From Gemmatimonadaceae bacterium (lineage in GTDB: Bacteria > Gemmatimonadota > Gemmatimonadetes > Gemmatimonadales > Gemmatimonadaceae), in assembly GCA_040902005.1 (NCBI GenBank), contig JBBDYA010000010.1, positions 1-49,319 of the forward strand: a stretch of 49,319 nt of DNA, read 5' to 3'. Each line of letters begins with the position of its first letter. Within the stretch, counting starts at the first letter, position 1. The position numbers were made by a program, and so were the translations under genes. Below the pieces are notes generated by a model, which saw only the letters and a list, made by a program, of their open reading frames with translations, ran no database searches and was not told where the DNA came from. Positions 2,654 through 41,372 of the stretch are shown one piece after another.

Positions 2654-3649
2654 TTAGGGTGCCGCCGCCTTCACCCTCCTCCCCGGCTCCACCACCTCGA
2701 TCGCCTCGACCGCTTCGACCGCCTTGGCTGCCTCGGCTGCCGGGCTCGCCGCGCCGTTGCGCGGAACGAGTCCCGCCGCGCCCATGATGCCCATCAGTGA
2801 CGGGACGTTCAATGAGTCGGCCAGTCCCGACGGCACCACCATCAGTGAGCCGCGCTTGACGATGCTCTCGTACAGCATGTTCATCGCGCGCAGGTTCATC
2901 GCCGCGGGGTGGTCGCGGTATGCGTCGGCCGCTTCCACGAACTTGTGGGCGATCTCCGTCTCCGCGGTTCCGAGAATGATGCGCGCCTGCCGCTCCCGCT
3001 CGGCCTGCGCCTGGCGCGACATCGCGTCCTCGAGCGCGGCGGGAATGATGACGTCGCGAATCTCGACGGACTGCACCTGGATTCCCCAGTTCTGCATCTT
3101 CTGCTCGAGCGCCAGCTTGAGCCCATGTCCGAGCTCGACGCGAGACTGGATCAGTTCCGCGAGATCATGCTTGCCAATGGCGTCGCGTAGCGCGGTCTGC
3201 GCCGAGAGGATGACCGCCTCGTCGTAGTCCTGCACCTCCAGCGCCGCGCGCTCCGCGTCCCGGACGATCCAGAACGCGATGGCGTCGACGTTGACCGGCA
3301 CGGTGTCGCGCGTCAGACACGATTCGGCGCCAAAGGCGGTGGTCCGGATGCGTTGATCGATGGTGTAGGCGATGCGGTCGAGGATCGGTAAAACGGCAAA
3401 GTACCCGGGGCCTCGCAGTCCGCGGTAGCGCCCAAGCCGCATGAGCACCGCTTTCTCCCACTGGTCGGTGTACTTGATCGACGCGGCGAGAAAGATCCAC
3501 ACCCCCACGCCCGCGGCGGCCACCAGCGGGAGCGGCACGCCCGTGATGAACAGCGCCCCAGCCAGCCCGGCACCGCCGATCAGCCCTGCTGCAAGAGCGG
3601 CGAAGGAGTAGCGGGTGTCGTTCGGAGTTTTTCGGGTCATGTTCATCAC
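2654..3649 (-). CDS. SPFH/stomatin (slipin) family protein
   Basis: LTRDTVPVNVDA, AQTALRDAIG, VEIRDV and AMSRQAQAERER are stomatin hallmarks; the start may be ATG at 3640. Confidence 0.92.
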   Translation of the reverse strand: MMNMTRKTPNDTRYSFAALAAGLIGGAGLAGALFITGVPLPLVAAAGVGVWIFLAASIKYTDQWEKAVLMRLGRYRGLRGPGYFAVLPILDRIAYTIDQRIRTTAFGAESCLTRDTVPVNVDAIAFWIVRDAERAALEVQDYDEAVILSAQTALRDAIGKHDLAELIQSRVELGHGLKLALEQKMQNWGIQVQSVEIRDVIIPAALEDAMSRQAQAERERQARIILGTAETEIAHKFVEAADAYRDHPAAMNLRAMNMLYESIVKRGSLMVVPSGLADSLNVPSLMGIMGAAGLVPRNGAASPAAEAAKAVEAVEAIEVVEPGRRVKAAAP

Positions 3650-3688: not shown

Positions 3689-4978
3689 CTATTTCGTGCG
3701 CACGGGGCGCACGTCTTTTGGTTTCGCGCGGTTGCTGCGGGGACGCACGATCTGCGCGACACGCGTTTCGTCGATGTACGGGCTGCGCGCTTCGCCGAGC
3801 TCGATGGGAAGCGCCACGCGGACGAGCACCGTGAGAACGAACAGGCCGAGCGCCCACACGCCCGCGGTCACGCCCAGCTCGACCAGCGTTGGCGTGTACT
3901 CGACGATTTCGCCCAGCGGCGACGGGATGAACCCGGGCACCACCAGCCCCAGCCCTTTCTCGATCCAGATGCTGACGAACAGCACCGCGCAGGCAGGCAT
4001 CAGCCAGCGCGGATTGCGGCGCAACGGGTGGATCATCAGGGCGGTCGTCGCCAGCACGTTCAGCGCGATCGCCGTCCAGATCCACGGCACCAGCGCGTTG
4101 TGGCCGTCGATGCCGAAGAACAGGTACTTCGCGTTGATGCCGTGATGCGTCGGTGAGTAGAACTTGTAGAACAGCTCCGAGCCAAGCATCACGATGTTGA
4201 TCTGCGCCGCGACCGTCGTGACCAGCGCGAGCTTGGTGAAGGCGCCGTCGGCGATTTCGTATTTCGTCTCCTTGCGTATGAACCACAGGAGCAGAATCAC
4301 GAACGCGGGGCCGGCGGTGAACGCCGACGCGAGAAAGCGCGGGCCGAGCAGCGCGGTATTCCAGAACGGCCGCGCCGGCAGTCCCGCCAGGAGGAACGCC
4401 GTCACCAGGTGAATGCTCACCGCCCACATCACGGCGATGTACATCCAGGGGAGGTACTTCTTCTTCTCCGGCGTACGCCCGCCGTAGCGGCTGTACAGGA
4501 TGTAAAACGGAATGGCGAGATTGAGCGCCAGATAGCCGTTCAGCACCAGCACGTCCCAGGCTAGGAGCGACCGAGGCCAGTTCAGAAAGCCGATGCCCGG
4601 CATGAGGTGCCAACCGGCCAGCGGGTTGCCGATGTCGACCACCACGAACGTGAGGCACATGACCAGGGCGGCCACGGCAACGGCCTCCGCCATGAGCACC
4701 GCGCGGCCGAAGTCGACGTCCTGCAGGATGTAGGCGGGAAGCACCAGCATCATGGCGGCGGCCGCCAGGCCGACGAGGAATGTGAAGTTGGAGATGTAGA
4801 GTCCCCAGCTCACGTGATCGTTCAGTCCCGTGACGCCCAGTCCATACCGCAGCTGAATGCCATACGCGTACCCGCCGACGAGCATGATGAGCGTCAGGCT
4901 GCCCATCCAGAGGTGGTAGCGCCGGCCCCCGGAGGTCGCCGCGTGGAGCGCGTGCAGCGCGAATGGCTTCAGGTGCAC
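3689..4978 (-). CDS. NrfD/PsrC/DsrP-family integral membrane quinol-interacting subunit
   Basis: About 10 hydrophobic helices; GLGVTGLNDHVSWGLYISNFTFLVG and SLLAWD motifs of the NrfD/DsrP family. Confidence 0.9.
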   Translation of the reverse strand: MHLKPFALHALHAATSGGRRYHLWMGSLTLIMLVGGYAYGIQLRYGLGVTGLNDHVSWGLYISNFTFLVGLAAAAMMLVLPAYILQDVDFGRAVLMAEAVAVAALVMCLTFVVVDIGNPLAGWHLMPGIGFLNWPRSLLAWDVLVLNGYLALNLAIPFYILYSRYGGRTPEKKKYLPWMYIAVMWAVSIHLVTAFLLAGLPARPFWNTALLGPRFLASAFTAGPAFVILLLWFIRKETKYEIADGAFTKLALVTTVAAQINIVMLGSELFYKFYSPTHHGINAKYLFFGIDGHNALVPWIWTAIALNVLATTALMIHPLRRNPRWLMPACAVLFVSIWIEKGLGLVVPGFIPSPLGEIVEYTPTLVELGVTAGVWALGLFVLTVLVRVALPIELGEARSPYIDETRVAQIVRPRSNRAKPKDVRPVRTK

Positions 4979-4985
4979 GATCGCC

Positions 4986-5963
4986 TCAGTCGGTGAAATA
5001 CCAGAAGCGCGGCTCGGTCTTCAAGTCTTCCTTCAGCCGGAACACGCGCTTGTTCGCGAGCACCCACCGGATCTCCGAGCTCGGATCGAGCAAATTTCCA
5101 AACACCCGCGCTCCAGTCGGACAAGCTTCCGCGCAGGCCGGGAGCCGGCCCTGCCGGGTCCGATGGATGCAGAAGTGGCACTTCTCGACCACGCCCACTT
5201 TGCGTTCGCGGTTGCCCAGGTAGTGCTGGTTCGGGTTCAACTCGGCGACTGGCACTTCCGGCGCGCTCCAGTTGAAGCGGCGCGCCCAATACGGGCAGGC
5301 GGCCATGCAGTAGCGGCAGCCAATGCACCAGTCGTAGTCGATGACGGTGATGCCGTCGGGTTCCTGCCAGGTGGCGCCGACGGGGCAGACCTTCACGCAT
5401 GGGGGATCCGCGCATTGAAAGCACTGGGTTCCCATATAGAAGTGACCCTGCGCCGGCACCTCGTGCTGGAAGGTGGCGTCGGCGTGGTCGAGATCGACGA
5501 TACCGTCCTCCATCTCGAAAATGCGGATGTACTGCGTGGCCGCGCGGCGGTCGAGATTGTTCTCGTTGATGCAGGCCTCGACGCAGCTTCGAAATCCCTT
5601 GCACTTCGAGATGTTGAAGGCGTAACCGAACACGACGCCCGGCTGGGCGCCGGTCGACTGTATCGTGACGTCGGCACCTTGTTTGATCTTCGCGATGCGC
5701 TCGAGACGCGCGATGGTCTCGGCCCGTTCGGCTTCCGTCATGACGCGGTAGTTGCCTTTGATGTACTCCCGCCAAGCGAGGAGCTTCATCTCCCGCTCTT
5801 CGTCCGACATGGTGGTGAGCGGCGCGCACGCGCTCATCGCCTGTGAGGCAGCCGCCGCGCCGCCCAGGAGAATGGCCAGCGCGCGCCGCCGGTCGACGCG
5901 TTTCTGCAACATCGATCCGTCATCGGTGACGGCGACCGGCTCCGGTGTTCGCGCAGTGCTCAT
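4986..5963 (-). CDS. NrfC/DsrO-type iron-sulfur (4Fe-4S dicluster) protein with Tat-like signal
   Basis: DRRRAL twin-arginine leader; Cys groups CKGFRSCVEAC, CFQCADPPCVKVCP, CIGCRYCMAACP, CHFC..CAEACP. Confidence 0.92.
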   Translation of the reverse strand: MSTARTPEPVAVTDDGSMLQKRVDRRRALAILLGGAAAASQAMSACAPLTTMSDEEREMKLLAWREYIKGNYRVMTEAERAETIARLERIAKIKQGADVTIQSTGAQPGVVFGYAFNISKCKGFRSCVEACINENNLDRRAATQYIRIFEMEDGIVDLDHADATFQHEVPAQGHFYMGTQCFQCADPPCVKVCPVGATWQEPDGITVIDYDWCIGCRYCMAACPYWARRFNWSAPEVPVAELNPNQHYLGNRERKVGVVEKCHFCIHRTRQGRLPACAEACPTGARVFGNLLDPSSEIRWVLANKRVFRLKEDLKTEPRFWYFTD

Positions 5964-6721
5964 TGATCCCTGCCTCGGATTCGCTCGAGGCGCGGAGCGC
6001 GGAATGGGATGCGTGGCTCGATCGCGGGTTTGTGCGGATCGTGGCAGTCGGCGCAGCCCATGAGCACGCGCCGCCCCTGCCAGCCGTCGAGTCGCTTGCC
6101 ATGCGCGCCGCCCGCCCAGGCCTCAGCCTGCGCGAAGTGGCACTGCGCGCACAGCCGGTACGTGTGATCGAGCGTAACACGTTCGCCGCTCTTGAGCGCG
6201 AGGAACTCGACATTCCCGGCCGCATGGCAGGTGGCGCAGGCGCCGCCGGTCTGCACGGGGTGCGCTGTCTGGATGTTCTCGTGAGCGCCCACCACGCGCT
6301 TGTCAGCCAGCACCATGCGTCGGCCCAGGTGACACGACGTGCACGGGTACTGACCGAGGTCCGGCGCGCGCACCCGGAGCGACGTCCGCATGGTGATGGT
6401 GCCGAATCGCCTCGAAAGGGCGGTCGTGGGGTCCACGGTACGGAGCGCGACTTCGAACGGCTGGCTCCCCGGGCCCTGCCAGTTGTCGACCGGCGCTGCG
6501 TACACCGTCTGGAGCGCGCCAGGTTGGAGCGTCGCGTTACGGGTGGTCTCCAGCGTCAGGACTCCCGAGTCGGATTTCGCGCGTGCGATGTCTGGTGTCG
6601 GCTCGCCATGCGGCGCGCCGAGCGCTGCGCGGTCGGCCGCGCCGTCACGTTCTCCGCATGCGGCATTCATCCACACCACCGCGACCGAAATTGCCGCCAC
6701 GATCTCCCGGCGCCGGATCAT
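5960..6721 (-). CDS. Tetraheme c-type cytochrome, probable lipoprotein
   Basis: CTSCH, CATCH, CAQCH, CADCH; MIRRREIVAA..NAAC lipobox-like leader; ATGA overlaps at both ends. Confidence 0.85.
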   Translation of the reverse strand: MIRRREIVAAISVAVVWMNAACGERDGAADRAALGAPHGEPTPDIARAKSDSGVLTLETTRNATLQPGALQTVYAAPVDNWQGPGSQPFEVALRTVDPTTALSRRFGTITMRTSLRVRAPDLGQYPCTSCHLGRRMVLADKRVVGAHENIQTAHPVQTGGACATCHAAGNVEFLALKSGERVTLDHTYRLCAQCHFAQAEAWAGGAHGKRLDGWQGRRVLMGCADCHDPHKPAIEPRIPFRAPRLERIRGRDQ

Positions 6722-7527
6722 GGCGCGCCCTCGCCGCCACCGGCAGCAAGTCGCGCCGGGCGGACGAACACGTCTGCGCCCGTGGCCGCCGCCACATGGC
6801 ACTGGCGGCAGTTGGCCCGCTCCGGGTGAGCCGTCCGGATCTCCGCGACACCCGCGGGGGCGGCGTGGCATGCCAGACAGTTCCCGCGCATCTGCAGCGC
6901 GTGCGGAATCGGCGGCGGATTGCCGCCGCGTGTCACCTGCGTCAGTTTCGGCCAGTCGAGCGGCGTCCAGTTCACCGCGGAATCCCTCCACCGCGCGGCG
7001 TTCGGCGCGTGGCACTGGCGACAGCGGGCGCTGGGATCGATGCCCGGCAGCGGGATGGCCATGAGTTCAGCGTCGCCCACGTGACACTGCAGACACGCGC
7101 CCATTTCGGAATGCGGCGTCACCGGCACATAGGCCCCAAAACGCTGAGAGAATCCCCCGCGCTCGTGGCACGTCTTGCAGCCACCGGTCTGAAACTCCGT
7201 CGGGGTCAGCCCGTGCGGGATGCGCGGCGGCGCGCCCGGGTAGGCTCGAAGCGCGCGAAAGGTCGCCAGCGTGCGCGGATGCGCCGCGCGCCGCGCAGCT
7301 TGCATTGGCTCGATTGCCAACATGCCGGGGCGGATGCGGAACACCTCCGCTTCGGCGGCGATCGGCGTGCCGGCCTGCGCCAGGATGGGCACGGTGGCCG
7401 GTGCGGCCGTGCGGTGCGTCGTCACGCGCTCGGCCGCGAGGATCAGCGCACCCAGTGCCGTGACCGCCGAGGCGATGAGAAAGACACGCATCGGCAGAAC
7501 GGATGGGCGCCGCTCGGGGAATCTCAC
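6718..7527 (-). CDS. NapB-like multiheme cytochrome c (5 CxxCH, two NapB-type repeats)
   Basis: YPGAPPRIPH..CKTCH..CLQCH, CRQCH, NPPPIPH..CLACH..CRQCH; directly downstream of the napA-like gene. Confidence 0.82.
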   Translation of the reverse strand: MRFPERRPSVLPMRVFLIASAVTALGALILAAERVTTHRTAAPATVPILAQAGTPIAAEAEVFRIRPGMLAIEPMQAARRAAHPRTLATFRALRAYPGAPPRIPHGLTPTEFQTGGCKTCHERGGFSQRFGAYVPVTPHSEMGACLQCHVGDAELMAIPLPGIDPSARCRQCHAPNAARWRDSAVNWTPLDWPKLTQVTRGGNPPPIPHALQMRGNCLACHAAPAGVAEIRTAHPERANCRQCHVAAATGADVFVRPARLAAGGGEGAP

Positions 7528-9866
7528 CTGCCGCTCCTCGCGGGAAGTCGCTCCACGCTCACCGCGCAGGTGCCGGTATCGGGCTGCCCGGAAAGAGGGC
7601 AGGAGGCATCGAGCATCAACCGTCTGACGGGTAGCGTCTCGTCGAACGACGGCACGAAGAGTTGTCCCCGCTGGGGCTGCGACCGGTAGTCGATGCGCGC
7701 TTGGATTTCGAGTGAGCCGCGCCGGCTCGCGACGCGCACCGTCTCACCGTTCTGAACGCCGAGCCGCTGCGCGTCGTCCCGGTGCATCTCGAGATATGCG
7801 CGCGGCACCGCGCGGTGGAGTGTCGGGACGCGTTGCGTCATGGAGCCCGCACCCCAGTGTTCGAGCACCGGTCCGATATTGAGCCAGAACAGGTAATCGG
7901 CGTTGGGCGACTCGGCCGGTGGCTCGTGCGGCCGCAGCCAGATCCACGCGCGTCCATCCGGATGACCGTAGAAGTCGAACGCGCCGCGGTCGCCGTTGGC
8001 CGCCGGGTCGTGCGCGGTGTTGTAGCGCCACCTGGTCTCGCGTCCGTTGACGAATGGCCACATCACGCCGGACTTGCCGCGCAACTCGGAGAGCGGCGCG
8101 AGTGCGCTCCGCGGCTCGTCGTGGAATCGGCGGTACTCCTCCCAAATCTGCGCGACGTGGCCGCGGCGCTCCCACGGAAAGAGCTTGGACAACCCGAGAC
8201 GGCGCGCGACCTCGATCATCTGCCAGGCGTCGCTCATCGCGTCACCGGGCGGCGCGACCATCTGATCGAAGTGCTGCGTACGTCGCTCCACATTCGCGAA
8301 GACGCCTTCGCGCTCGATCCACATCGCCGCGGGCAGGACGACGTCGGCCACGTCCGTCGTCGGCGTGGGGTACGCCTCGGACACGACCAGAAAGCGATCG
8401 CTCTTCGCCGCCGCGCGGCGATACTTGCTCAGGTTCGGCAGGCTGACCATCGGGTTGGTCGCTTGAATCCACAGAAAGCGGATGTCGCCTCGATCGAGCG
8501 CGCGAAACATCTCCAGCGCGGTTCGGGTGGGCCGAGGGTCGATCTTCTCCACCGGAATGCCCCAGATCGCGGCGGCGCGGCCGCGGTCCTGATCGTTGTG
8601 CACCACACCTCGGGGGAGTGTGTGGGTCAGCGTGCCCGCGTCGTGTACCGCGCTTCCGCCGCTCGGCTGCCCCGTGATGCAGAACGGGCTGTTCCCGGGC
8701 GACGCGACTTTCCCCACGAGCAGATGGATGTTGTAGAGCACGTTGTTCAGCCACGTGCCGCGCGCGTGCTGATTTGCATTGGCGCCCCAGACCGACATCA
8801 CCTTGCGCGAACGATCGCCATAGACCGAGGCGAGCCAGCGGATACGCTCCGACGGAACCCCCGACAGCTCCTGGCCGCGTTGGGGCGCGTAATCGGCGAG
8901 AAACGCCACGTAGTCGTCCCACGTGACCGATGTGGCGTCGTTGGCCACGGGCGCGTCGTCGGAGAGGCCGTACCCGATGGCGGTCTTGCCACGCCTGAAT
9001 GCCACGTGCCGATCGACGAATTCGCGATTCACCAACTTGCGCGCGACGATCTCGTGGCAGATGGCGTTCGCGATCGCTATCGCCGAGTGCGGCGCGTGGA
9101 GCAGGGACTGGTCGGCGGCGTAGCTGGTGCGCGTGGTGCGCGTCGTCAGATCGATGATGAGAACGCCGCTGTCCTGCCGCCGGCGGTCCAGGATGCGCGA
9201 GAAAAGAACAGGGTCCGTCTCGGCGATGTTCGCGTCCCAGAGGACGAACGCGTCGGCACGATCGATGTCCTCGTAGCAGCCGATCGCGCCGTCCAGGCCG
9301 AAGCTGCTCTCGAGGCCGGCCATCGCGCTGGCCGCGTAGAGCCGGGCACTGGTTTCGACGTTATTCGTCCCCAGCCCGCCTTTGAAGAGCTTCGACGCGA
9401 CGTAGGCGTCCGCGATGGTCCACTGCGCGGATCCGTATACGGCGACGCTGTCCTTGCCGTGCTGTTGGGTGGTCTCGCGGAGCCGCTGCGCGACCAAGTC
9501 GAGCGCTTCGCCGATCGGCACCTCGACCAGGGCGTTATCGCGACGGATCATGGCGCGCGTGATCCGATCCCGTCCGTAGAGCGCCTGCACCGAGTAATAG
9601 CCTTTCGCGCACGCCAGTCCCTTGCTCACCGGTGAGTCCGGGTCGCCTCTGACGGCAACCGCGCGCCCTTTCTCGATTCCGACTAAAAGCCCGCAACCAA
9701 CACCGCACAGCCGGCAGGGTGACTTCTTCCAAATCGGACCTGCCTCGTTTTCAGTCCGATCGGCGTTCGCGTGCAGAAGCGCGCCGGGCGCGAGGGCCGA
9801 CCCGGCGGTGGCCGCCGATACGGCAGCGATCCGTCTGAGGAACGTCCTTCGATCGACAGTTCGCAT
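7524..9866 (-). CDS. NapA-family molybdopterin oxidoreductase homolog with degenerate active site
   Basis: Tat signal DRRTFL; CRLCGVGC-x27-CAKG [4Fe-4S] motif; collinear NapA motifs (QWT, ADAFVLW, NQH, TGQPS, EHW) but Mo-ligand Cys replaced by Tyr. Confidence 0.88.
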   Translation of the reverse strand: MRTVDRRTFLRRIAAVSAATAGSALAPGALLHANADRTENEAGPIWKKSPCRLCGVGCGLLVGIEKGRAVAVRGDPDSPVSKGLACAKGYYSVQALYGRDRITRAMIRRDNALVEVPIGEALDLVAQRLRETTQQHGKDSVAVYGSAQWTIADAYVASKLFKGGLGTNNVETSARLYAASAMAGLESSFGLDGAIGCYEDIDRADAFVLWDANIAETDPVLFSRILDRRRQDSGVLIIDLTTRTTRTSYAADQSLLHAPHSAIAIANAICHEIVARKLVNREFVDRHVAFRRGKTAIGYGLSDDAPVANDATSVTWDDYVAFLADYAPQRGQELSGVPSERIRWLASVYGDRSRKVMSVWGANANQHARGTWLNNVLYNIHLLVGKVASPGNSPFCITGQPSGGSAVHDAGTLTHTLPRGVVHNDQDRGRAAAIWGIPVEKIDPRPTRTALEMFRALDRGDIRFLWIQATNPMVSLPNLSKYRRAAAKSDRFLVVSEAYPTPTTDVADVVLPAAMWIEREGVFANVERRTQHFDQMVAPPGDAMSDAWQMIEVARRLGLSKLFPWERRGHVAQIWEEYRRFHDEPRSALAPLSELRGKSGVMWPFVNGRETRWRYNTAHDPAANGDRGAFDFYGHPDGRAWIWLRPHEPPAESPNADYLFWLNIGPVLEHWGAGSMTQRVPTLHRAVPRAYLEMHRDDAQRLGVQNGETVRVASRRGSLEIQARIDYRSQPQRGQLFVPSFDETLPVRRLMLDASCPLSGQPDTGTCAVSVERLPARSGR

Positions 9867-9982: not shown

Positions 9983-10150
9983 TGAGGTTCTCACCGCATC
10001 GCATCAGGGATTCCCGTACAGACGCTTCGCCGTTCGGCGTGAAGCGCTAAACGATGCGGGGATACCCTGGATGCCTGCGTAGGTAGTTTTACTGACAGGC
10101 CATGTGGGGCAACCCCCGACTGTCCGAAAGCTCACGAGGAGAGTTCCTTA
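9983..10150. promoter_or_regulatory. Divergent promoter region with several copies of the 15-bp palindromic box
   Basis: TCAGGGATTCCCGTA (10004), CGGGGATACCCTGGA (10057), TAGGTAGTTTTACTGA (10080), TGGGGCAACCCCCGA (10105), GAGGAGAGTTCCTTA (10136). Confidence 0.55.
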
Positions 10151-10207: not shown

Positions 10208-11773
10208 ATGCGCCAAGCACGATCGATCGTCCGAGCGCTCAGCCAGTTGACGACAGCATTCATCACGACGGTCTTCATCGCGGGGTGTTCCAACGAGAGG
10301 GTCGTCTTCCGTGATCGCGCGCCGTTCAATATCCCGGTTGCCGCCGCGGCAGGCTTCCTCGGGTATTACGACGTGGCGTCAAAGCAGACCACGTGCGGCA
10401 ACTGCCACGCCGACATCCAGGGAAGCTGGAAGGGCACCAAGCACGCGAGTGCCTATACGACGGTGAACACAAGTCCCGCGAAAGCCGATGCGTGCTACGG
10501 CTGCCATACCGTAACGGGCAACGGGAACAAGGCGGTCGGCACGGTGGCTGGACATGACGCGGTCAAGGAGGCGACGTACTATGACGTCCAGTGCGAAAGT
10601 TGCCACGGCCCGGGCCTCGAGCACGTCGAGGGCGTCGGCCAAGCCACGCTGGTGAGGCCGCTCGCGAGACTCAGCATGGCCGGCACGGGCAACTGCGGCG
10701 ACTGCCATTCAGGAGCCCATCAGCCATTCGCGGAGGAGTGGGCAGCCTCGAGACACGCGAATGTCAGCGCGTCGCGTGCGTCGAATGCCACGTGCGCCGG
10801 CTGTCACGACGGCCGCAAGGCGCTGCTGCGGTGGGGCGTCGACGACAACTACGCCGAGCGCGATTCGGCAACGGCCTACCAGCCGACGACCTGCGCCGTG
10901 TGTCACAATCCGCACGGCTCGAGCAACCCGAGTCAGCTGCGATTCTCGGTGACGTCACCCGACCCTGAAGAGAATCTCTGTGTCCGATGCCATCTGCGGA
11001 TTGCCGAGCCGACCGTCACGACGAGCTCACCACACGGACCGCAGGGTGCGGTGCTGTTGGGCTTCGCCGGCTGGCGTCCGCCCGGATTTGTGTACGACAC
11101 CGCGACGATCTTCGGGTCGCACGCCACCGAGAGGAACCCCAAACTTTGCGCGGGCTGCCACATCGCCAAGTTCACGGTGACCGACCAGCTGACCGGCGCT
11201 TTCTCGTTCCAGGCGACGGGCCACCTGATGCGCCCGATCCCGTGCCTCGACGCCACCGGCAAGCCGACCGCCGACAAAACGTGCGCCTATACGGCGACGG
11301 CGAGGTCGTGGCAGACCTGCGCGAGCTCGGGCTGTCATGGCAGCGCCACGGCCGCTGCAACCGTATTCAACGACTCCCGCGCCTTGATGAAGTCGTTCAC
11401 GGATCAGCTCTGGACCGACCTGAACGCCAGTGGCTCGATCCAGGCTTCGCCGACCGACGGCGGTCTGCTCGCCACCCTGAAAGGCTCCAGCTCGGCCGAA
11501 TGGAGCAACACCGACAACGTCATCACGCCGGCGGAAGGCGCCGAGTTCAACGCGCGTCTCTGCGGCGAGTTCAACCAGTCCACCGCCGATAACTCGAAAG
11601 GCGCGCATAACCCGTTCTTGTGCCGGGCGCTCCTGATCGCCACAATCAACTACGTGAAGAGCTACTACGGGCTGCCCAGCATCTCGGCAACCGTGCAGGC
11701 CAGCATGGACAGTGTGAGCCAGCCACGGTTATTGAGCGGGATGCACGTTTCCCGCGCACCACGCGGTAGGTGA
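10208..11773 (+). CDS. Multiheme cytochrome c lipoprotein (8 CxxCH + 1 Cx4CH)
   Basis: FIAGC lipobox; CGNCH, CYGCH, CESCH, CGDCH, CAGCH, CAVCH, CVRCH, CAGCH, CASSGCH. Confidence 0.9.
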   Translation: MRQARSIVRALSQLTTAFITTVFIAGCSNERVVFRDRAPFNIPVAAAAGFLGYYDVASKQTTCGNCHADIQGSWKGTKHASAYTTVNTSPAKADACYGCHTVTGNGNKAVGTVAGHDAVKEATYYDVQCESCHGPGLEHVEGVGQATLVRPLARLSMAGTGNCGDCHSGAHQPFAEEWAASRHANVSASRASNATCAGCHDGRKALLRWGVDDNYAERDSATAYQPTTCAVCHNPHGSSNPSQLRFSVTSPDPEENLCVRCHLRIAEPTVTTSSPHGPQGAVLLGFAGWRPPGFVYDTATIFGSHATERNPKLCAGCHIAKFTVTDQLTGAFSFQATGHLMRPIPCLDATGKPTADKTCAYTATARSWQTCASSGCHGSATAAATVFNDSRALMKSFTDQLWTDLNASGSIQASPTDGGLLATLKGSSSAEWSNTDNVITPAEGAEFNARLCGEFNQSTADNSKGAHNPFLCRALLIATINYVKSYYGLPSISATVQASMDSVSQPRLLSGMHVSRAPRGR

Positions 11774-11792: not shown

Positions 11793-13829
11793 GTGATCGG
11801 CACTCGAGCGAGCGCCGTCGCCCAGGTTCTCCACTCGGCGGCGGCGCTTCAGCAAGCGCACGTCCCGCCCGCGGACTCGATCGTCGTCGAGTCGCCCCTT
11901 CCCGGTGGCGTTTCAGCGGTCGTCCGGTTTCTGCTGAACACCGTCCCGCCGTGGGTGCAAATGGGCGGGGTTGTCGTTGGGGCCGTCGTTGCCATATTCG
12001 TCCTCCGGCAACTGTTCCTGCGCCGCGCCGCGATCCGGGCGTGGCTGGCCTCCCGCACGCGCGGCGTCAGATTGGCGCTCGCGATGGCGGCGGTGGTGGT
12101 ATTCGCCGCCGCCGCGGGCGCGGGGACCGCGACCTGGAATTACACGCAGCACGCGAACGACTTCTGCATCGGGTGTCATGTCATGAACCCGGCGTTTCAG
12201 AAATTCGGCGCCGAGGCGAACAAGCACGCCGAGCTGTCGTGCCACGACTGTCACCAGCAGCCGCTGTCCGCCAGCGTGCGGCAGCTGTACCTGTGGGTCG
12301 CGGAGCGTCCGGAGAAGATTGGTGAACACGCGAAGGTGGCGAATCGGGTTTGCGAGACGTGCCACGTCACGGGGGACACCGCCACCTGGCAGCGCATCGC
12401 CGCCACGGCGGGACACCGCGTCCATCTGGAGTCCGACTCGAGCGCGCTCGACGACATGCAGTGCGTCTCGTGTCACGGCGTCGAGGTGCATCGATTCAAG
12501 CCGGTGAACGAGACGTGCGGTCAGAGCGATTGCCACAAGGCGAGCGAAACGGGGATCGTGCTCGGCAAGATGGCGACGCAGACGGTGCGGCATTGCACCA
12601 GCTGCCACGCGTTCACCGCTGACGTTCCCGCGCTCGCCACTCGGGACTCGGCGCGCGGCACGCTGGTCCCCGGCAAGGGGGAGTGTCTCGGGTGCCACGA
12701 GATGCAACAAGTCCTCAAGGACTTCAATGAGGGGAAAGACCCTCACGGCGGGAAGTGCGGCGCGTGTCACAACCCGCATACGCAGAAGACGCCGGCGGCG
12801 GCGGCGATGTCGTGCGCCACGGCGGGCTGTCATGCGAATTGGCGCGACGAAGCGTTCCACGTCGGCGCGAGCCACCGGCGGGTCGGCGCACAATGCCTCA
12901 CGTGTCATATGCCGCATGCCGCGAAGGTTGACGCGAGCAGTTGTGAAGGATGTCACGTGAGCGTGCGGGCCCGGGGAAAGCTGCGGCCACCCCTCCCGTT
13001 CGACACAACCAGGGCGCTGCGGCGCGTCGGCACGCCGGCCACACCGCCGCCGCCCGAGACCCACCCAGGATCCTGGCATTCCGTGTTGACCGGGTCGCTC
13101 CGCGAGGATGGTTCCGAGCCTGATTCCGGCGATGATGCGACGCTGTTCGAGCAGGACGAGACAATACCGGACGAACAATTCCTCGACGTTCGCCTGTCGC
13201 GGCCGCCGCCTGCCTCTGCCGACAGCTTTCCCCACGCGAGGCACGCGAAGCTGGCGTGCCTCACGTGTCATGAGACCGGGGCGGGACACGGCCGCCTCAC
13301 GTTCGAGCGGCCGCGAGGGTGTGCCATCTGCCACCACCAGGCGCCGGCGGCCGACAAGTGCGCGTCCTGCCACCGAACGGAGAGGTATGCGGGCCCGAAA
13401 CACGCGACGGTGACGGTGACGGTCCCCGGGCGTTCGCCCAATCCGCGGCCGGTAGACTTTCTTCACGCGCGGCACAGCGCGCGATCCTGCGTGGAGTGCC
13501 ATACTACGCCGGTCACGCTCTCGCCGGCACAGGCGCTGTGCCAGGATTGCCACAGCGAACATCATGCGGCTGACCGTACCTGCTCGTCGTGCCACGCGAT
13601 CGTCGAGCCCAAAGCCGAGCACAAGACGCTCGAGATGGCGCACCAGCGCTGCGATGCGTGCCACACCGCGACGACCGTCGAGCGCCTGACGCCGGCGCGA
13701 AGCTTCTGCAGTACCTGCCACGCGGCGAAGGCGAAGGACCACTACGACCGGAAGGAGTGCAGCGTCTGCCACTTTCTCGCTGACCCTGACGTCTATCGTT
13801 CGAAACTGATCACGCCTCCGCCAGGATGA
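11793..13829 (+). CDS. Membrane-anchored multiheme cytochrome (18 CxxCH + 2 Cx4CH) with NapC/NrfH-like N-terminal domain
   Basis: Two N-terminal hydrophobic helices followed by DFCIGCHVM (CxxCHxM); 20 heme motifs counted in the translation. Confidence 0.88.
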   Translation: MIGTRASAVAQVLHSAAALQQAHVPPADSIVVESPLPGGVSAVVRFLLNTVPPWVQMGGVVVGAVVAIFVLRQLFLRRAAIRAWLASRTRGVRLALAMAAVVVFAAAAGAGTATWNYTQHANDFCIGCHVMNPAFQKFGAEANKHAELSCHDCHQQPLSASVRQLYLWVAERPEKIGEHAKVANRVCETCHVTGDTATWQRIAATAGHRVHLESDSSALDDMQCVSCHGVEVHRFKPVNETCGQSDCHKASETGIVLGKMATQTVRHCTSCHAFTADVPALATRDSARGTLVPGKGECLGCHEMQQVLKDFNEGKDPHGGKCGACHNPHTQKTPAAAAMSCATAGCHANWRDEAFHVGASHRRVGAQCLTCHMPHAAKVDASSCEGCHVSVRARGKLRPPLPFDTTRALRRVGTPATPPPPETHPGSWHSVLTGSLREDGSEPDSGDDATLFEQDETIPDEQFLDVRLSRPPPASADSFPHARHAKLACLTCHETGAGHGRLTFERPRGCAICHHQAPAADKCASCHRTERYAGPKHATVTVTVPGRSPNPRPVDFLHARHSARSCVECHTTPVTLSPAQALCQDCHSEHHAADRTCSSCHAIVEPKAEHKTLEMAHQRCDACHTATTVERLTPARSFCSTCHAAKAKDHYDRKECSVCHFLADPDVYRSKLITPPPG

Positions 13830-15307
13830 CGCGGCGCTGCGCGCTGATCGCCGCGTCCATCCTCGTGATGGAGACCGCTCCGGCCGGGGCCCAGAATTAC
13901 CGTGTTCGCGTGGACGCGAGCTCGCAGGCCGTGTCGTTTCGCGGTCTCGTCTCCGACAGCATCGCGGTTGGGTTGGCGGTGCCATCCGCGAACGGAGGAT
14001 TCGAGACGCCGGATGGCCATGCGGTACGATGCGGCGCGGGCGAGTACTGCTTCTTCCTGCGGCCGGGCCCCGTGTTGCGCGGGATTCCTGTGACGACCTC
14101 CGCGAGCATGGTCCTGTGGGGCTTGGGCGTTCAGGGGCTGACAGTGCGCGCGACCGGTCGGGTCTTGGCGGATCTCGGCCGCGATCAGGTGTGGCCCGGG
14201 ACCGATCCGTCGGCGCAGCTCATCGAGGGGTATCTCGAATACGAGCGCTCGGCGGTCGTCGCGCGAGCGGGGCGTCAGCTCGTGATGTCGCGCCTCGAGC
14301 CGATCGGCTTCGACGGCGGCTGGCTCAAGGCTCGTTGGGACAACCCTTCGCTCACGTTCACGGGGTACAGCGGATGGGGCCTCGGACAAGCGGCCGCGCT
14401 TTCAGCGCTGAGTCCCGCGCTCAATCCGCTCGATGAGTGGCGGCCGCGCGACCGGCAGATCGTGGCGGGCGCCGAAGCGTCGTGGCTCCACCGCGACCTT
14501 GACGTCCGCGCGGAGTATCGGCGAGAGATCGACCCGCAAGACGACTACTTCGTCTCTGAGCGCACGGCGCTCTCGTTCGGTGCGCGCGCCGCTGCGTTTC
14601 GCGCGGCCGGCGGAATGGATTACAACATTGCCGAGGGACACTTTGGAAGCGTTGATGCCACGCTGACATATTTGCACCCGCGGTTTTCGGTGTCGGGGGG
14701 CGCGCGGCGGTACCGTCCGTACTTCAGTCTCTGGACGCTGTGGGGCGCCTTCAGCCCCGTGCCGTACCATGCGCTGAATATTTCCGCGCAGGTTCAGCAG
14801 ACTGGCTGGCTGTCGCTACGCGGACGCGGCGAACGCTATCGCTACGAGAGCGCGGACGTCTCCACCGCGCTCGTTCCCGATTTGCAGGATCGCGGATGGC
14901 GCGCGAGCGCCGGGGCCACCGCGACATGGGGCTCGGCCTGGACGCTGGAAGCCAACTACGGCCTCGAGCGGGGTCCGGGCGCTGCGGGAAGGTTCGCCGA
15001 TGGCACGGTGACCTACGCGCCCAACGAGAGGTACTCGTTTGATTTCTATGGCGGCACGATGGCGCGACCACTCGAGCTGCGCTACTACGACGCGACGAGT
15101 CGCTGGATCGGCGGCCGCACGGAGTGGCAACTCACCGCGCAGCGCCGGGTCTGGTGCGACATCGCGTTCGTCAACGACGATCGCGACAGACCCGATGCGA
15201 GCGCGTCGTCGCTCACGCAGTTCCGTCTCCGAGCGGGATTGAGTTTGGCGTTCGGCTCTGGCGCCGATCGTACGCCGCTTCCGCCGGCTCGACGGACGGG
15301 AAGATGA
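13826..15307 (+). CDS. Probable outer-membrane beta-barrel (porin) protein
   Basis: Signal peptide; many alternating aromatic/Gly/Arg amphipathic strands; terminal strand RAGLSLAF; ATGA-coupled between two multiheme genes. Confidence 0.7.
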   Translation: MTRRCALIAASILVMETAPAGAQNYRVRVDASSQAVSFRGLVSDSIAVGLAVPSANGGFETPDGHAVRCGAGEYCFFLRPGPVLRGIPVTTSASMVLWGLGVQGLTVRATGRVLADLGRDQVWPGTDPSAQLIEGYLEYERSAVVARAGRQLVMSRLEPIGFDGGWLKARWDNPSLTFTGYSGWGLGQAAALSALSPALNPLDEWRPRDRQIVAGAEASWLHRDLDVRAEYRREIDPQDDYFVSERTALSFGARAAAFRAAGGMDYNIAEGHFGSVDATLTYLHPRFSVSGGARRYRPYFSLWTLWGAFSPVPYHALNISAQVQQTGWLSLRGRGERYRYESADVSTALVPDLQDRGWRASAGATATWGSAWTLEANYGLERGPGAAGRFADGTVTYAPNERYSFDFYGGTMARPLELRYYDATSRWIGGRTEWQLTAQRRVWCDIAFVNDDRDRPDASASSLTQFRLRAGLSLAFGSGADRTPLPPARRTGR

Positions 15308-16812
15308 GCCCGCGGCGACGGGTGCGTCCGGCGGCGATTGTCGCGGCGGTAATCGTCGCGGCGGTGATCGTCGCGGCGCTGGCCTCCGGGACTGTCTTCG
15401 CCGCGCCGTCTGCCGTTCGCGTGTTGGACTCCCGATTCCCCCACGACAAGCACGGCAACGTTTTTCCTCTCTGCGCCACCTGCCACGCGGGAGTCGTCGA
15501 ACCGGGCCAGCCGATGTGGCCCGAACCGGCACGGTGCGTGTCATGTCACGACAGTGTGGTGAAACCGCGAATCGAGTGGGAACCGCGAACGGGTCCGCGC
15601 CCGGGCAATCGGCGCTTCACGCACGAAGCACACAGTCGTGCGGCCGCCGCCAAGAATCCAGCCGACAGCGCGCTGATCCGAAACTGTTCCGCGTGTCATA
15701 CCGAGCGCGGTGCGCCACGGATGACCGTGCAGAACGCCGTAGTCGGACAATGCCTCGATTGTCACGGACTCGAGGCGCCCCACGTGGATGTCGCGAGCGA
15801 CGCATGCGCGACCTGTCACGTGCGACTGACCGACGCGCCGGGTTTGACTCGCGACGATATCGCGCGCTTCCCCCGGCCTCAGTCGCACGGCGCGAAGGAT
15901 TTCTTACTCGGCGGCCACGGCAAGGCAGCGAAAGTACCTGGCATTACCTCGGGCCCGCTCGCGGTCGCGGCGAGCTGCGCCACATGCCACGCGCGCAATC
16001 TCTGCATCGCGTGTCATGTCAACGCCCCGGAATCGCCCGTGATTCGCGCGCTGGCGCTCGACGATCGGTCACCCGCTTACGCGTCGCTGCGGCTCGTGCC
16101 GGCGGGTCACGCGTCCGCCGACTTCATGCGGGCGCACGGCCGGGACGCGCAGCGATCGACCGCGACTTGCGCGACCTGTCATGCGCGGGAGAGTTGCATG
16201 AGTTGCCACGCCAGAGACCTGCCGCGCGCCGTGGCGTCACTGCCGGCCGCCGGCACGGGACGCGCGCTCGGCGCGCGGTTGACACGCGCTGCGCCATCGA
16301 GTCACACGCGGGAGTTCAGGGAACGACATGGGGCGGAGGCGAACGCCCGCCCGAGGTCGTGCGAGACTTGCCACGTGCGCTCGACGTGCCTCGAGTGCCA
16401 CCGTCCAGACGGTGCCCGGCAGTCTCGCTACCACGCGCAGGGGTTCCTGACGCGCCACCCGAGCTCGGCCTACGCGCGCGAAGCGAATTGCAGCGATTGC
16501 CACAACCCCGCGCAGTTCTGCCAAAGCTGCCACCAGCAGGCGGGGCTTGTCGCGACGTCACGAATCGGACCGAAGGGGTACCACGACGCTTTTCGCGGCT
16601 TCAGCCTGGGACACGGACAGGCCGCGCGCCAGAGCCTCGAGTCGTGCGCGTCGTGCCACGCGGAGCGCGACTGCACTGCGTGTCATTCCGCGGTGGGCGG
16701 CGGTTTCCGATTCAACCCTCACGGGCCCGGCTTCAACGCGGCGCGGCTCCGATCAAAGAACCCGTCCTTCTGCATCGCGTGTCATGGCCGCGCGATACCG
16801 GGCGGCCGGTGA
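15304..16812 (+). CDS. Periplasmic multiheme cytochrome c (16 CxxCH)
   Basis: Hydrophobic leader; 16 CxxCH motifs including five CxxCH-x4/5-CxxCH doublets; ATG overlaps the porin stop. Confidence 0.9.
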   Translation: MSPRRRVRPAAIVAAVIVAAVIVAALASGTVFAAPSAVRVLDSRFPHDKHGNVFPLCATCHAGVVEPGQPMWPEPARCVSCHDSVVKPRIEWEPRTGPRPGNRRFTHEAHSRAAAAKNPADSALIRNCSACHTERGAPRMTVQNAVVGQCLDCHGLEAPHVDVASDACATCHVRLTDAPGLTRDDIARFPRPQSHGAKDFLLGGHGKAAKVPGITSGPLAVAASCATCHARNLCIACHVNAPESPVIRALALDDRSPAYASLRLVPAGHASADFMRAHGRDAQRSTATCATCHARESCMSCHARDLPRAVASLPAAGTGRALGARLTRAAPSSHTREFRERHGAEANARPRSCETCHVRSTCLECHRPDGARQSRYHAQGFLTRHPSSAYAREANCSDCHNPAQFCQSCHQQAGLVATSRIGPKGYHDAFRGFSLGHGQAARQSLESCASCHAERDCTACHSAVGGGFRFNPHGPGFNAARLRSKNPSFCIACHGRAIPGGR

Positions 16813-16857
16813 TCGTGCGCTGATTCTCCGGTCGCCCGACATTGCCGGACTATTTTG

Positions 16858-16894
16858 GCGTGCAAACGCCGACTCCCCTTAAGGGAAACTCCGA
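16858..16894. promoter_or_regulatory. Pair of palindromic boxes 22 bp apart upstream of USP copy 1
   Basis: GCGTGCAAACGCCGA (16858) and TAAGGGAAACTCCGA (16880); conserved upstream of the paralog. Confidence 0.55.
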
Positions 16895-16955
16895 CGCCGG
16901 AAGTCCTTGTGGACCGGCACTTTGTCTCCTGAACAGGACGCCCACGGGAGGCTCC

Positions 16956-18237
16956 ATGGCTACCGCAACGCTGCAGGATAACCGAGCAAGCGATTCTTCC
17001 GAACTCCTTGCCCGCGAGCCGACGGTAGCCGGTCCCCTGCTCGTGGCCACGGACGGCTCGGTGCGTTGTGACGCTGCCGTGCGCGCCGCGCGGGCGATCG
17101 CGTCAGTGACGCGGCAGCAGGTCCTCGTGCTCGCGGTGCACGCGCCGCTCCCGGTGATGGGCCCCGAAGTGCAGCTCGCGACGAGTCCGGCCATGGACGA
17201 GCAAAGCAGAATCGGACTTCTGGGCCAGGTGGCGGATCAGCTCGACCGGGTCGGCATTGCGGATTGGCCGGTGGAGGTGACGACGGGATCCCCGGCTGCA
17301 ACCGTCGCGACGCGCGCGAAAACGATCGATGCATCCCTGATCGTGATGGGGCTGGGCGGACACGGTGTGCTCGAGCAGGTTTTTGGCGACGAGATGGCGC
17401 TGCAGGTCTTGCGCGTTGGGTTGGTACCGATTCTCGCGGTCGCCGAAGACTTCCGGGGCCTGCCTTCGCGGGCGCTGTGCGCGGTGGACTTCAGTGCGTC
17501 GAGCAAGCGCGCCCTCGAGTTGGGCGGACCGCTGGTCCGCGCCGGCGGCAGACTGACGCTCGCGCACGTGATCACCTCCGACACCGACCCAGTGAATCTG
17601 GCGGCGATGGATCGCGTGCACGTCGGTTCGATCGGGCGCGCGCTCAAACGCGAGACGGCGGACGTGGACTTTTGCCGACGGGGTGATCTGCGAACATCGC
17701 ATCCTCGCCGGCGATCCGGCGAGCGAGCTGCTCGGGCTTGCCGCGAAGTTGCGCGCAGACTTGATCATCACCGGCTCACACGGACACAACTTCCTCAGCC
17801 GGCTGCTCGTGGGCAGCGTCTCGACGCGACTCCTGCGAAAGGCCGGTTGCTCGATCCTCGTGGCTCCGCCGCTCGGCGCGCCTGAGCTCGTGAAGGAGCT
17901 GCCTGAAAGCTCGGGACGCTTTGCCTTCTATGAGTGGGCTGAGCGTCTCGAGGAGTTTACTCGGCAGAATCTTTGGCGGCGTGCGCGGCTGGAGGTCATC
18001 GATCCCGAGATGGGCGCGCAAATCGCCGAGGACAATGTGGCCTTCATGGGCGCCTCGTTCGATCCGCGCGATGGCCGTGTCCATCTCATGTTCGGCTCCC
18101 GGAACGGCGACCGAAAGCAGCTCACGCACAGCATCGGTGGTGTGACGGCGATTCAGATTCTCCGCGGCCGGACCAGCGGTTCCTATCTCCGCATCGGGCA
18201 CGGCCGCGGACAGACGTTGCTTACGCTCGCGCCCTGA
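16956..18237 (+). pseudogene. Tandem-USP + DUF5335-like protein, split by a +1 frameshift (or sequencing error)
   Basis: ORFs 16956..17885 and 17683..18237 together align with the intact paralog 18388..19671; removing one T from TTTT at 17670-17673 restores VDFADGVICEH. Confidence 0.85.
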
Positions 18238-18320: not shown

Positions 18321-18387
18321 CGCCAGAAGGCCTTGTAGAACGCCACTTTGCCTCCGAACCGCAGTGCTAATGCTCGTCGGAGGACCT

Positions 18388-19671
18388 ATGGCAACCGCGA
18401 TGCTGCAACGTGCACGCCCCCAGGAATCGGCCCTACTCCGAGCCGCGCCGGCGGCCATCACGGACCAACCACTTCTGGTGGCGACCGATGGATCATCGCC
18501 GTCGGATGCGGCCCTGCGCGCCGCCCGCGCCATCTCGGATCTCACCGGGCAGAAGGTGATCCTGCTCGGCGTGCACGCGCCGATGCCGATGATGGGACCC
18601 GAGGTGCAAATCGCCACGACGCCGAACGTGGACGCCGAGCAACGCGCGGCGCTGCAATCGCGGCTCAAGGAACAGCTGGAGCGCGTTGGGATTTCCGCGC
18701 CCTGGTCCGAACACGTCGTCACCGGGCATCCCGCCGCCACGATCGCCAACTTCGCGACGAAGATCGATGCTTGGCTCATCATCATGGGGCTGGGCGGACA
18801 CGACTTGTTCGAGCGGATCTTCGGCGACGAGATGGTGCTCCAGGTGCTGCGAGTCGGTACCGCGCCGGTGCTGGCGGTCGCGGAGAGCTTTCAGAGCTTG
18901 CCGAAGCGTGCTCTCGCGGCGGTCGATTTCAGCTCGTCGAGCGTTCAGGCGCTGGCGCTTGGCGGCGCGCTGATGAAGTGGGGCGGCGAGATCACACTGG
19001 CGCACGTGCTTTCCGCGGATCGCGAACCACTCAAGTGGTCGTCCACGGAGGCCGACTATGTACGCTCTGTTGGGCGCACGCTCGACCGGATCGTCGTGGA
19101 CGCGGGGCTGTTCGGTGAAGCAGTGCGATGCGAGCGCAAGGTACTGTCCGGCGATCCATCGAAGCAGTTGATCGATCTGGCGAAAAGCCAGCAGCCGGAT
19201 CTCATCATCGCCGGATCGCACGGACACGGCTTTCTGTCGCGACTGTTGATCGGAAGTGTCTCGACCAAGCTCTTGAGAAAGACGGGCTGCTCGATCCTGA
19301 TCGTGCCGCCGACCGAAGGTCCGGAATTCATGGACGAGCTGTCCGAGCTCGGGCGGTTCGCCTTCTACGAATGGACGGAGCGTCTCGAGGAGTTCACGCG
19401 GCGCAATACCGGCCGGCTTGCGCGGCTCGAGGTCCTCGATCCGGACATCGGTGCGCAACTCGAGGAGGACCATTCGACTTTCGTTGGCGCATCGCTGGAT
19501 CCCCGAGACGGTCGGGTCCAGATCATGTTCGGCAGCGAGGACGGCGGACATCTGACACGCTCAATCGGAGGGGTGACGGCGATCCAGATGCTGCGTGATC
19601 GGAACGGACAAGACGCGTTTCTACGCGTCGCTCACGGACGTGGGCAGACGCTGTTGACGCTCGAGCGCTGA
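18388..19671 (+). CDS. Universal stress protein (two USP domains) with C-terminal DUF5335-like domain
   Basis: LLVATDGS..LIIMG and LAAVDFS..DLIIAGSHG..GSVS USP motifs; C-terminal EW..LEEFTR..LEV.DPDIGAQ..HLTRSI; GGAGG RBS. Confidence 0.9.
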   Translation: MATAMLQRARPQESALLRAAPAAITDQPLLVATDGSSPSDAALRAARAISDLTGQKVILLGVHAPMPMMGPEVQIATTPNVDAEQRAALQSRLKEQLERVGISAPWSEHVVTGHPAATIANFATKIDAWLIIMGLGGHDLFERIFGDEMVLQVLRVGTAPVLAVAESFQSLPKRALAAVDFSSSSVQALALGGALMKWGGEITLAHVLSADREPLKWSSTEADYVRSVGRTLDRIVVDAGLFGEAVRCERKVLSGDPSKQLIDLAKSQQPDLIIAGSHGHGFLSRLLIGSVSTKLLRKTGCSILIVPPTEGPEFMDELSELGRFAFYEWTERLEEFTRRNTGRLARLEVLDPDIGAQLEEDHSTFVGASLDPRDGRVQIMFGSEDGGHLTRSIGGVTAIQMLRDRNGQDAFLRVAHGRGQTLLTLER

Positions 19672-41216: not shown

Positions 41217-41372
41217 GTCATGCAATATCGCCGTGAAGCCGCCGTTGTGAGGCAATGCCGGAAAAGGCGATGGAGAGCAAACACTCACGTGCAACCCGGC
41301 GTTCCCCTACTGACATTTTTCCCTGGAGCGAGCATCGTGCAGGGGAAGGCGCCGGTGTAACCGCGAGGTCAT

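Follow-up and report, generated by a model that had tools for sequence, protein, structure and literature searches.

A NapA homolog without the molybdenum-ligand cysteine, conserved in a five-gene operon of Gemmatimonadota, as a candidate molybdenum-free redox subunit

A homolog of the nitrate reductase NapA, encoded in a 49,319-nucleotide stretch of DNA from a Gemmatimonadaceae bacterium (GCA_040902005.1, contig JBBDYA010000010.1; the whole stretch is called the window below), has a tyrosine in place of the cysteine that ligates molybdenum in NapA, together with many further changes in the former active site. Comparative analysis showed that these residue changes are shared by a clade of Gemmatimonadota proteins, and it established the ancestry of this clade, the selection that acts on its genes, the conservation of its operon and the absence of the chaperone NapD from the five genomes of this type that were searched. 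From these observations we infer that the NapA-derived subunit no longer binds the molybdenum bis-molybdopterin guanine dinucleotide cofactor (Mo-bisMGD), and we consider it rather probable that the protein serves a quinol:cytochrome module as a scaffold or relay subunit that carries Fe-S but no Mo.

The gene on the minus strand of the window (Table 1) is a stop-free reading frame of 780 codons, and its product begins with a twin-arginine (Tat) signal, DRRTFLR. Although the longest alternative frame extends to position 10004, 9866 was taken as the start because the Tat motif fits there. The ligands of a [4Fe-4S] cluster are complete (C51-x2-C54-x3-C58 ... C86-x-K88) and three molybdopterin oxidoreductase domains were recognized with Pfam. 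An earlier reading of the same DNA, made from the letters alone (the sequence-only reading), had described an intact open reading frame of about 780 codons with a Tat signal and a complete cluster motif, and translation and a motif check agreed with it. The top NCBIfam models are two NapA equivalogs, both of which score below their cut-offs (NF010055, 778.9 bits against 904; TIGR01706, 754.2 bits against 930.55), and the closest solved structures are the NapA proteins of Cupriavidus necator (3ML1, 649 bits) and Escherichia coli (2NYA, 645 bits). Membership of the QrcB family was rejected, as NF041783 gave 75.7 bits against a cut-off of 440 and the phylogeny described below places the protein inside NapA.

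In the alignment to 3ML1 and 2NYA, Tyr177 (codon 9336-9338) stands at the Mo-ligand Cys (nidpnarhCmasa in NapA, vetsarlYaasa in the window protein) and the Met that follows the ligand is replaced by Ala. The other active-site motifs of NapA are changed as well: DEPMG to DGAIG, WGxNMAEMHP to WDANIAETDP, WTMGFNQH to WGANANQH, GQPSACGTAREVG to GQPSGGSAVHDAG with His408 (codon 8643-8645) for the Arg of GTAREVG, TGRVLEHWHxG to IGPVLEHWGAG, and DFKKCA to DTGTCA. The sequence-only reading had listed these substitutions against a NapA consensus; the structure-based references confirmed every one of them, and its coordinates for the Tyr and His codons were correct. The main text of a 2026 review of NapA structures (PMC13223375) describes two patches that hydrogen-bond the pterins, residues 212-219 and 718-729 of E. 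coli NapA (EcNapA), with the conserved contacts G213, N215, E218, R720, V721, H724, W725 and H726, and it places Arg354 of Desulfovibrio desulfuricans NapA (DdNapA) above the catalytic pocket and an essential Lys between the cluster and the pterin. When the window protein was mapped by motif alignment onto the residue lists in that text, three of the eight named pterin contacts were found to be changed (G213 to D211, R720 to P666 and H726 to G672), and the equivalent of DdNapA Arg354 was His408. The R720 equivalent is Pro in the window protein and Ala in most of its clade.

The substitutions are not peculiar to one genome. A search over 5.8 billion proteins gave 120 closest homolog clusters with 74-94% identity to the window protein, which, where named, belong to Gemmatimonadaceae or Gemmatimonadales. 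Among the window protein and these clusters (n = 121), position 177 is Tyr in 114 and His in 7 and is never Cys, Arg does not occur at pocket position 408, and all 121 retain the four cluster cysteines; the new residues Asp211, Asp218, His408 and Gly672 are present in 116, 113, 110 and 118, respectively. A library clustered at 50% identity contains one full-length representative of the family (64% identity); the next full-length matches are canonical NapA with every canonical motif present (39-44% identity), and Ala or Gln occurs at position 177 in divergent family fragments. When one genome per species was scanned, 79 loci were obtained, all from metagenome-assembled genomes. At position 177, 47 of them have Y, 12 have C, 7 have H, 5 have A and 3 have F; four rows are gapped, and the single S comes from a frameshifted row (L037) judged untrustworthy. 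Ten full-length canonical NapA representatives and five Fdh/Nas outgroup rows carry the canonical residues at the substituted positions. The recurrence of identical changes across the clade, hereafter the derived clade, indicates that they are due neither to chance nor to error. Within the group the trait is patchily distributed: it was detected in 5 of 41 genomes of relatives including its own (E<=1e-150), and with its own genome set aside, in 2 of 10 of the same genus, 3 of 24 of the same family and 1 of 16 from two other families.

The 12 loci with Cys at position 177 (L039, L042, L043, L045, L046, L049, L055, L075, L077, L078, L082 and L083) encode a fully canonical NapA (Cys, Met, DEPMG, HP, Arg, TGR, HWH and KK) in the same five-gene operon as that of the window, and come from Rokubacteria, Bacteroidota and Gemmatimonadota. 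In these Cys-type operons, NapC or NapGH is replaced by a DsrO/DsrP-like module, and the main text of a review of NrfD-containing complexes (PMC8076601) does not mention 'Nap'. The relationship between the two forms was examined in a FastTree phylogeny of 82 rows, from which 14 rows with less than 90% coverage or an internal stop had been left out, and in an IQ-TREE phylogeny of 52 rows under a site-mixture model, both rooted on Fdh/Nas. In both trees the derived clade is monophyletic (support 100) and its sister is a single protein, L080 (support 97 and 94). The two together lie within a grade of Gemmatimonadota Cys-type NapA (96-99), which in turn lies within a clade of NapA from five-gene operons (100). 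This topology shows that the derived clade descends from a working NapA with this type of operon.

L080 (10001-12337 of its contig) has Tyr at position 177 but the canonical residue at 17 of the 25 positions altered in the derived clade; it keeps the pocket Arg, TGR and KK. When L080 was used as the query, 114 of the 120 clusters listed were canonical and 6 lacked the Cys, one of them being the cluster of L080 itself. The five others, P0309, P0312, P0316, P0352 and P0372, have Ser, Ser, Gly, Glu or Asp at position 177, keep the pocket Arg and have lost parts of the domain IV patch. Every Cys-less row falls into one clade (26 rows, support 93 in a 65-row FastTree phylogeny), across which position 177 is occupied by Y, H, A, F, Q, S, G, E or D. 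The simplest history suggested by these trees, whose alignments include the trait columns, is a single loss of the Cys followed by stepwise erosion. L080 itself may be a Mo enzyme, one whose protein ligand is unusual or absent.

The ratio of nonsynonymous to synonymous substitution rates (dN/dS) is 0.10-0.18 in 12 pairs of derived genes versus 0.04-0.15 in five Cys-type pairs, and the two forms overlap in identity to the query (63-94% and 57-67%). As judged from the sequences, the NapA-like gene is under purifying selection that has kept its fold, Tat export, [4Fe-4S] cluster, NapB-type docking face and operon. The sequence-only reading had noted that canonical motifs in all close orthologs would imply strain-specific decay or read errors; the Cys is missing from every close homolog, and the selection on the gene rules such decay or errors out. 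That the gene is a decaying pseudogene, or the product of an error in assembly or reads, is scarcely credible given the intact frame, the same changes in 120 clusters and 66 loci, the low dN/dS and the presence of two copies in the genome.

Conservation of the former site was then quantified by column. The alignment has 731 columns, of which 130 show at least 95% conservation across 20 Cys-type NapA proteins, and 25 of these NapA-invariant columns have a different majority residue in the 56 rows of the derived clade. The Fdh/Nas outgroup majority matches NapA in 21 of the 25, indicating that these 21 positions are conserved superfamily-wide. Within the derived clade, the changed columns average 1.08 bits of entropy, compared with 0.16 bits for the 105 invariant columns that were retained and 0.91 bits for all others, and 12 of the changed columns are hypervariable (>1 bit: 81, 177, 178, 194, 262, 362, 363, 396, 397, 405, 666 and 765).

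NapD (PF03927) gave no match at E<=0.01 in the genome of the window (3.64 Mb, 93% complete), nor in any of four other genomes with the derived type. In three of five Cys-type genomes it is encoded directly upstream of napA (L039, L043 and L045); L042 has no NapD match, and that of L077 is on a different contig. L080 has a NapD match of 42 bits, 12 bp upstream of its gene. The genome of the window has matches to MoaC and MoeA for synthesis of the molybdenum cofactor (Moco), indicating that it can make Moco, as well as other molybdoenzyme homologs and an ActB-like gene. A canonical NapA was not found in this genome, in which TIGR01706 matches only two paralogs, both below cut-off. A formate-dehydrogenase-like molybdopterin gene on its contig C30 (9284-10558, minus strand) has one in-frame TGA, possibly for selenocysteine.

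These data bear on whether the protein is still a nitrate reductase in which Tyr or water replaces the Cys, which we regard as very improbable. Annotation at the Joint Genome Institute (JGI) speaks for it, and according to the main text of PMC12769810 the C176D variant of Campylobacter jejuni NapA keeps some activity, which means that ligand swaps can be tolerated. However, the pocket Arg, the Met beside the Cys and pterin contacts were lost together, some members have Ala or Phe at the ligand position, NapD was found in none of the five derived-type genomes, and the protein scores below both NapA equivalog cut-offs. The sequence-only reading had expected automated annotation to miscall the gene napA. 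This holds for JGI, where many members are named 'nitrate reductase NapA' or 'nitrate reductase (cytochrome)', but not for NCBI, where the name is 'molybdopterin-dependent oxidoreductase' because the scores fall under the NapA cut-offs.

The protein was modeled with AlphaFold2 (AF2) from a 46-row alignment. The model has the four-domain NapA fold (mean predicted local distance difference test score, pLDDT, 90; predicted TM-score, pTM, 0.90), and a Foldseek search matched it to 3ml1_A with a TM-score of 0.90. Among its structured parts, confidence is lowest for residues 401-410 (pLDDT 65), which form the loop with His408. A complex of NapA-like residues 42-780 with residues 52-258 of cytA, the pentahaem cytochrome encoded by the adjoining gene, scored 0.69 (median of three runs), and the best of three controls scored 0.00; of 157 solved complexes, 116 attain that mark, as do 2 of 215 mismatched pairs. 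Contacts agree between the runs to at least 96%, with a partner pLDDT of at least 68, and the predicted interface brings the FS0 cluster domain of the NapA-like protein (63-99, including 83-87) together with a haem motif of cytA (141-153). Since NapAB complexes have already been solved, this score may reflect likeness to NapAB and is not independent proof of binding.

The operon partners are listed in Table 1. In the 31 derived-type and 4 Cys-type loci with full flanks (10 kb), four partner genes are colinear with the NapA homolog without exception (31/31 and 4/4). cytA consists of two NapB-like dihaem repeats (PPxIPH...CxxCH...CxQCH twice) and one extra haem; its start overlaps the stop of the NapA-like gene by 4 nt, and 4-nt overlaps also occur in the downstream genes on this strand. 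The start of cytB was placed at the ATG at 6721 on the basis of its signal peptide and lipobox, a longer frame to 7015 overlapping cytA. The DsrO-like subunit is a four-cluster ferredoxin that scores 186 bits for DsrO, just under the cut-off of 200, and 149 bits for QrcC. The DsrP-like gene is followed by a Band 7 gene in 30 of the 31 derived-type loci.

Divergent from the operon are genes for a 9-haem lipoprotein, which matches the DmsE and GSU2203 decahaem families, for a cytochrome with about 20 haems and for a predicted outer-membrane barrel. The barrel protein has no Pfam or NCBIfam family, and a Foldseek search with its model returned usher and porin barrels, with MtrB (6r2q_B) at rank 30. 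At least two of these three genes lie within 10 kb in 19 of the 31 derived-type loci. The genome contains a second, paralogous copy of the whole cluster (L001, contig C6, 758-13358), made up of genes for the barrel, the 20-haem and 9-haem cytochromes, a NapA-like protein also with Tyr, cytA, cytB, the Fe-S protein, the DsrP-like protein and Band 7; gene by gene, the two clusters are 59-92% identical.

Table 1. Genes of the operon and of the adjoining divergent cluster, in window coordinates.
Feature	Position	Strand	Evidence
NapA-derived subunit, 780 aa	7524..9866	(-)	Pfam, NCBIfam, PDB alignment, AF2, Foldseek
cytA, membrane-anchored pentahaem cytochrome c	6718..7527	(-)	Cytochrome_C7 and NapB Pfam; 5 CxxCH
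cytB, tetrahaem lipoprotein	5960..6721	(-)	4 CxxCH; lipobox MNAAC; colinear in relatives
Tat-exported 4Fe-4S ferredoxin-type periplasmic subunit, DsrO/NrfC-like	4986..5963	(-)	Fer4_11 etc.; RRRAL signal
NrfD-family quinone-interacting integral membrane subunit, DsrP-like	3689..4978	(-)	NrfD Pfam; DsrP 399 bits (cut-off 350)
SPFH/Band 7 (stomatin-like) membrane protein	2654..3649	(-)	
Multihaem lipoprotein cytochrome, MtrC/MtrF-like domain	10208..11773	(+), divergent	8 CxxCH + 1 CxxxxCH; PF22113, Paired_CXXCH; lipobox
~20-haem cytochrome c	11793..13829	(+)	18 CxxCH + 2 CxxxxCH
Predicted outer-membrane beta-barrel, 493 aa, ~24 strands	13826..15307	(+)	AF2 pLDDT 78.5, all-beta

This haem-rich locus is adjoined by cytochrome c maturation genes, the C-terminal part of CcmF and a CcmG-like redoxin, at 2-1482 of the window on the plus strand. 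After the barrel gene there is a putative 435-aa frame (15516-16823, plus strand) without a Pfam or NCBIfam match, and downstream of the cytochrome genes are genes with universal-stress-protein domains (16842-17885, 18364-19671 and 25569-26537) and P-type ATPases (19703-21490 and 38520-41294).

The nested position of the Cys-less clade, the variable residue at position 177, the 25 changed columns and the NapD pattern support the statement of the sequence-only reading that this is not a nitrate reductase. It had left two roles open, a cofactor-free structural or electron-relay subunit or an enzyme with new chemistry, and the comparative evidence appears to favor the former. Several observations weigh against a Mo-free subunit in an extracellular route. 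Five of the eight named pterin contacts are retained (N213, E216, V667, H670 and W671), as is K88 (117/121), whose NapA counterpart bridges cluster and pterin; a cofactor-free protein need not keep these residues, and they speak against full loss of the cofactor. The majority of the 25 changes are to smaller residues (Gly, Ala and Ser), so the cofactor cavity is not obviously filled. The trait columns themselves were part of the tree alignments. As for the link to the outer membrane, 12 of 31 derived loci lack the barrel and multihaem genes within 10 kb, and similar multihaem genes occur near the Cys-type Gemmatimonadota loci L039, L078 and L083, which means that this link is not specific to the derived form. 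Two further points of this kind, the precedent of arsenite oxidase and the newly fixed residues, belong to the alternatives that follow.

Arsenite oxidase, an enzyme of the dimethyl sulfoxide reductase (DMSOR) family, holds Mo-bisMGD without a protein ligand. The NapA-like protein might likewise still bind Mo- or W-bisMGD in this way and, at the periplasmic end of the cytochrome chain, catalyze some reaction that is not nitrate reduction; we think this unlikely. The full four-domain fold is intact, K88, N213, E216, Q400, H670 and W671 are retained, Moco can be made by the genome, and L080 combines Tyr with 17 of 25 canonical residues and NapD, showing that a Tyr form with an otherwise intact site existed. 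Set against this are the loss of the pterin contacts G213, R720 and H726 and of the superfamily-invariant D262 and K765, the occurrence of Y, H, A and F at position 177, which cannot all share one role, the missing NapD in five of five derived-type genomes and the low confidence of the His408 loop, the least confident structured part of the model.

Eight of the changed columns are newly fixed at 95% or more (S173, G193, D211, D218, G403, G404, D409 and G672), which could mean that the site has been rebuilt. That the vacated pocket now takes another metal or a small ligand through its new Asp, His and Tyr residues, and serves a new activity or sensing, strikes us as distinctly unlikely. D211, D218 and D409 are each present in at least 96% of the derived clade, H408 in 86%, and Tyr or His177 together in 86%, and their canonical counterparts line the Mo/pterin region as described in the main text of PMC13223375. 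On the other hand, Ala or Phe occupies position 177 in 8 loci. A broader version of this idea, which we rate as quite unlikely, is that the pocket was rebuilt around Asp211, Asp218, His408, Asp409 and Tyr/His177 into a new kind of redox enzyme or sensor in the periplasm, placed at the inner end of an extracellular electron conduit, with L080, P0312/P0316 and P0309/P0352/P0372 as intermediates that would record the conversion stepwise. To our knowledge, a pocket rebuilt in such a manner has no precedent.

Under the reading that we prefer, that of a Mo-free subunit, a NapA of Gemmatimonadota would have lost its Mo-ligand Cys once, within an ancestral complex that probably consisted of NapA, a tandem-NapB pentahaem cytochrome, a tetrahaem lipoprotein, a DsrO-like Fe-S protein and a DsrP-like membrane protein that interacts with quinol. 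Once the Cys was gone, the pocket Arg, several pterin contacts and the chaperone gene napD would have been lost in steps. The present NapA-like protein would then most likely act as a Mo-bisMGD-free scaffold, or as a relay with one cluster, and keep the NapB-like cytochrome in place within a quinol:cytochrome c oxidoreductase, by analogy with QrcB or ActB. In this complex the DsrP-like subunit, the DsrO-like subunit and the two cytochromes would connect the quinone pool with periplasmic haems in either sense. We infer the path of the electrons and its link to the outer membrane: from the periplasmic haems, electrons would probably pass to the 20-haem cytochrome, the outer-membrane barrel and the 9-haem lipoprotein, amounting to extracellular electron transfer, which may run in either direction.

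Literature searches and the main texts consulted gave no account of a NapA clade lacking the Cys, nor of this complex in Gemmatimonadota. In the main text of PMC12769810, the NapA phylogeny covers cultured organisms only, and 'Gemmatimon' is not mentioned there. A survey of marine Gemmatimonadota (PMC11316326, main text) counts NapAB as evidence of nitrate reduction, and many metagenome pipelines label these proteins NapA. If the clade is inactive on nitrate, napA-based estimates would be too high for soils and sediments rich in Gemmatimonadales, and napA counts would be corrected by a residue filter for Cys at the ligand position and Arg in the pocket loop. The clade also offers an unusually well-resolved case of pseudoenzyme evolution, as the active ancestral form, at least three partly eroded lineages and a fully eroded clade are extant with the same operon, and because these stages share one operon the order of losses can be read and tested. 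More broadly, the findings point to an undescribed quinol:cytochrome module, possibly a route for extracellular electron transfer, in a widespread and mostly uncultured soil phylum.

Among known systems, NapA (3ML1, 2NYA, 1OGY and 2NAP) is the direct ancestor of the window protein, which shares its four-domain fold (TM 0.90), Tat signal, FS0 motif and bridging Lys and, in the predicted complex, docks a NapB-like cytochrome; it differs from NapA by the absence of the Mo-ligand Cys, the pocket Arg and NapD, by changes in three of eight pterin contacts and by scores under the NCBIfam cut-offs. The Cys-type Nap operons with a DsrOP-like module have the same gene order and the same partners (tandem-NapB, tetrahaem, DsrO-like and DsrP-like), but their NapA keeps the Cys and the canonical motifs, and the window clade is an eroded descendant of it. 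QrcB of the Qrc complex, listed without cofactors in the main text of PMC8076601, and the N-terminal part of ActB in alternative complex III are non-catalytic subunits of DMSOR fold beside a multihaem cytochrome, a four-cluster ferredoxin and an NrfD-type subunit; the window protein, which has this fold and such partners, would be analogous to them. Unlike these, the window protein arose independently from NapA, retains the FS0 cysteines and has extant evolutionary intermediates. Molybdopterin-like subunits without cofactor are already known, and the window clade would be an independent, NapA-derived instance with living intermediates. The TMH1-DsrOhPh-tetrahaem locus of cable bacteria, as described in the main text of PMC13047784, also encodes DsrO-like and DsrP-like homologs with a periplasmic tetrahaem cytochrome, whereas the window combines this module with a NapA-derived subunit and a cytochrome of tandem-NapB type. 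Finally, the divergent cluster resembles MtrCAB and the Pcc/Ext conduits of Geobacter in that a predicted barrel, a large periplasmic multihaem cytochrome and a multihaem lipoprotein are encoded together next to the operon, but the window barrel best matches generic outer-membrane barrels, with neither a specific family match nor sequence membership in MtrB or MtrA emerging.

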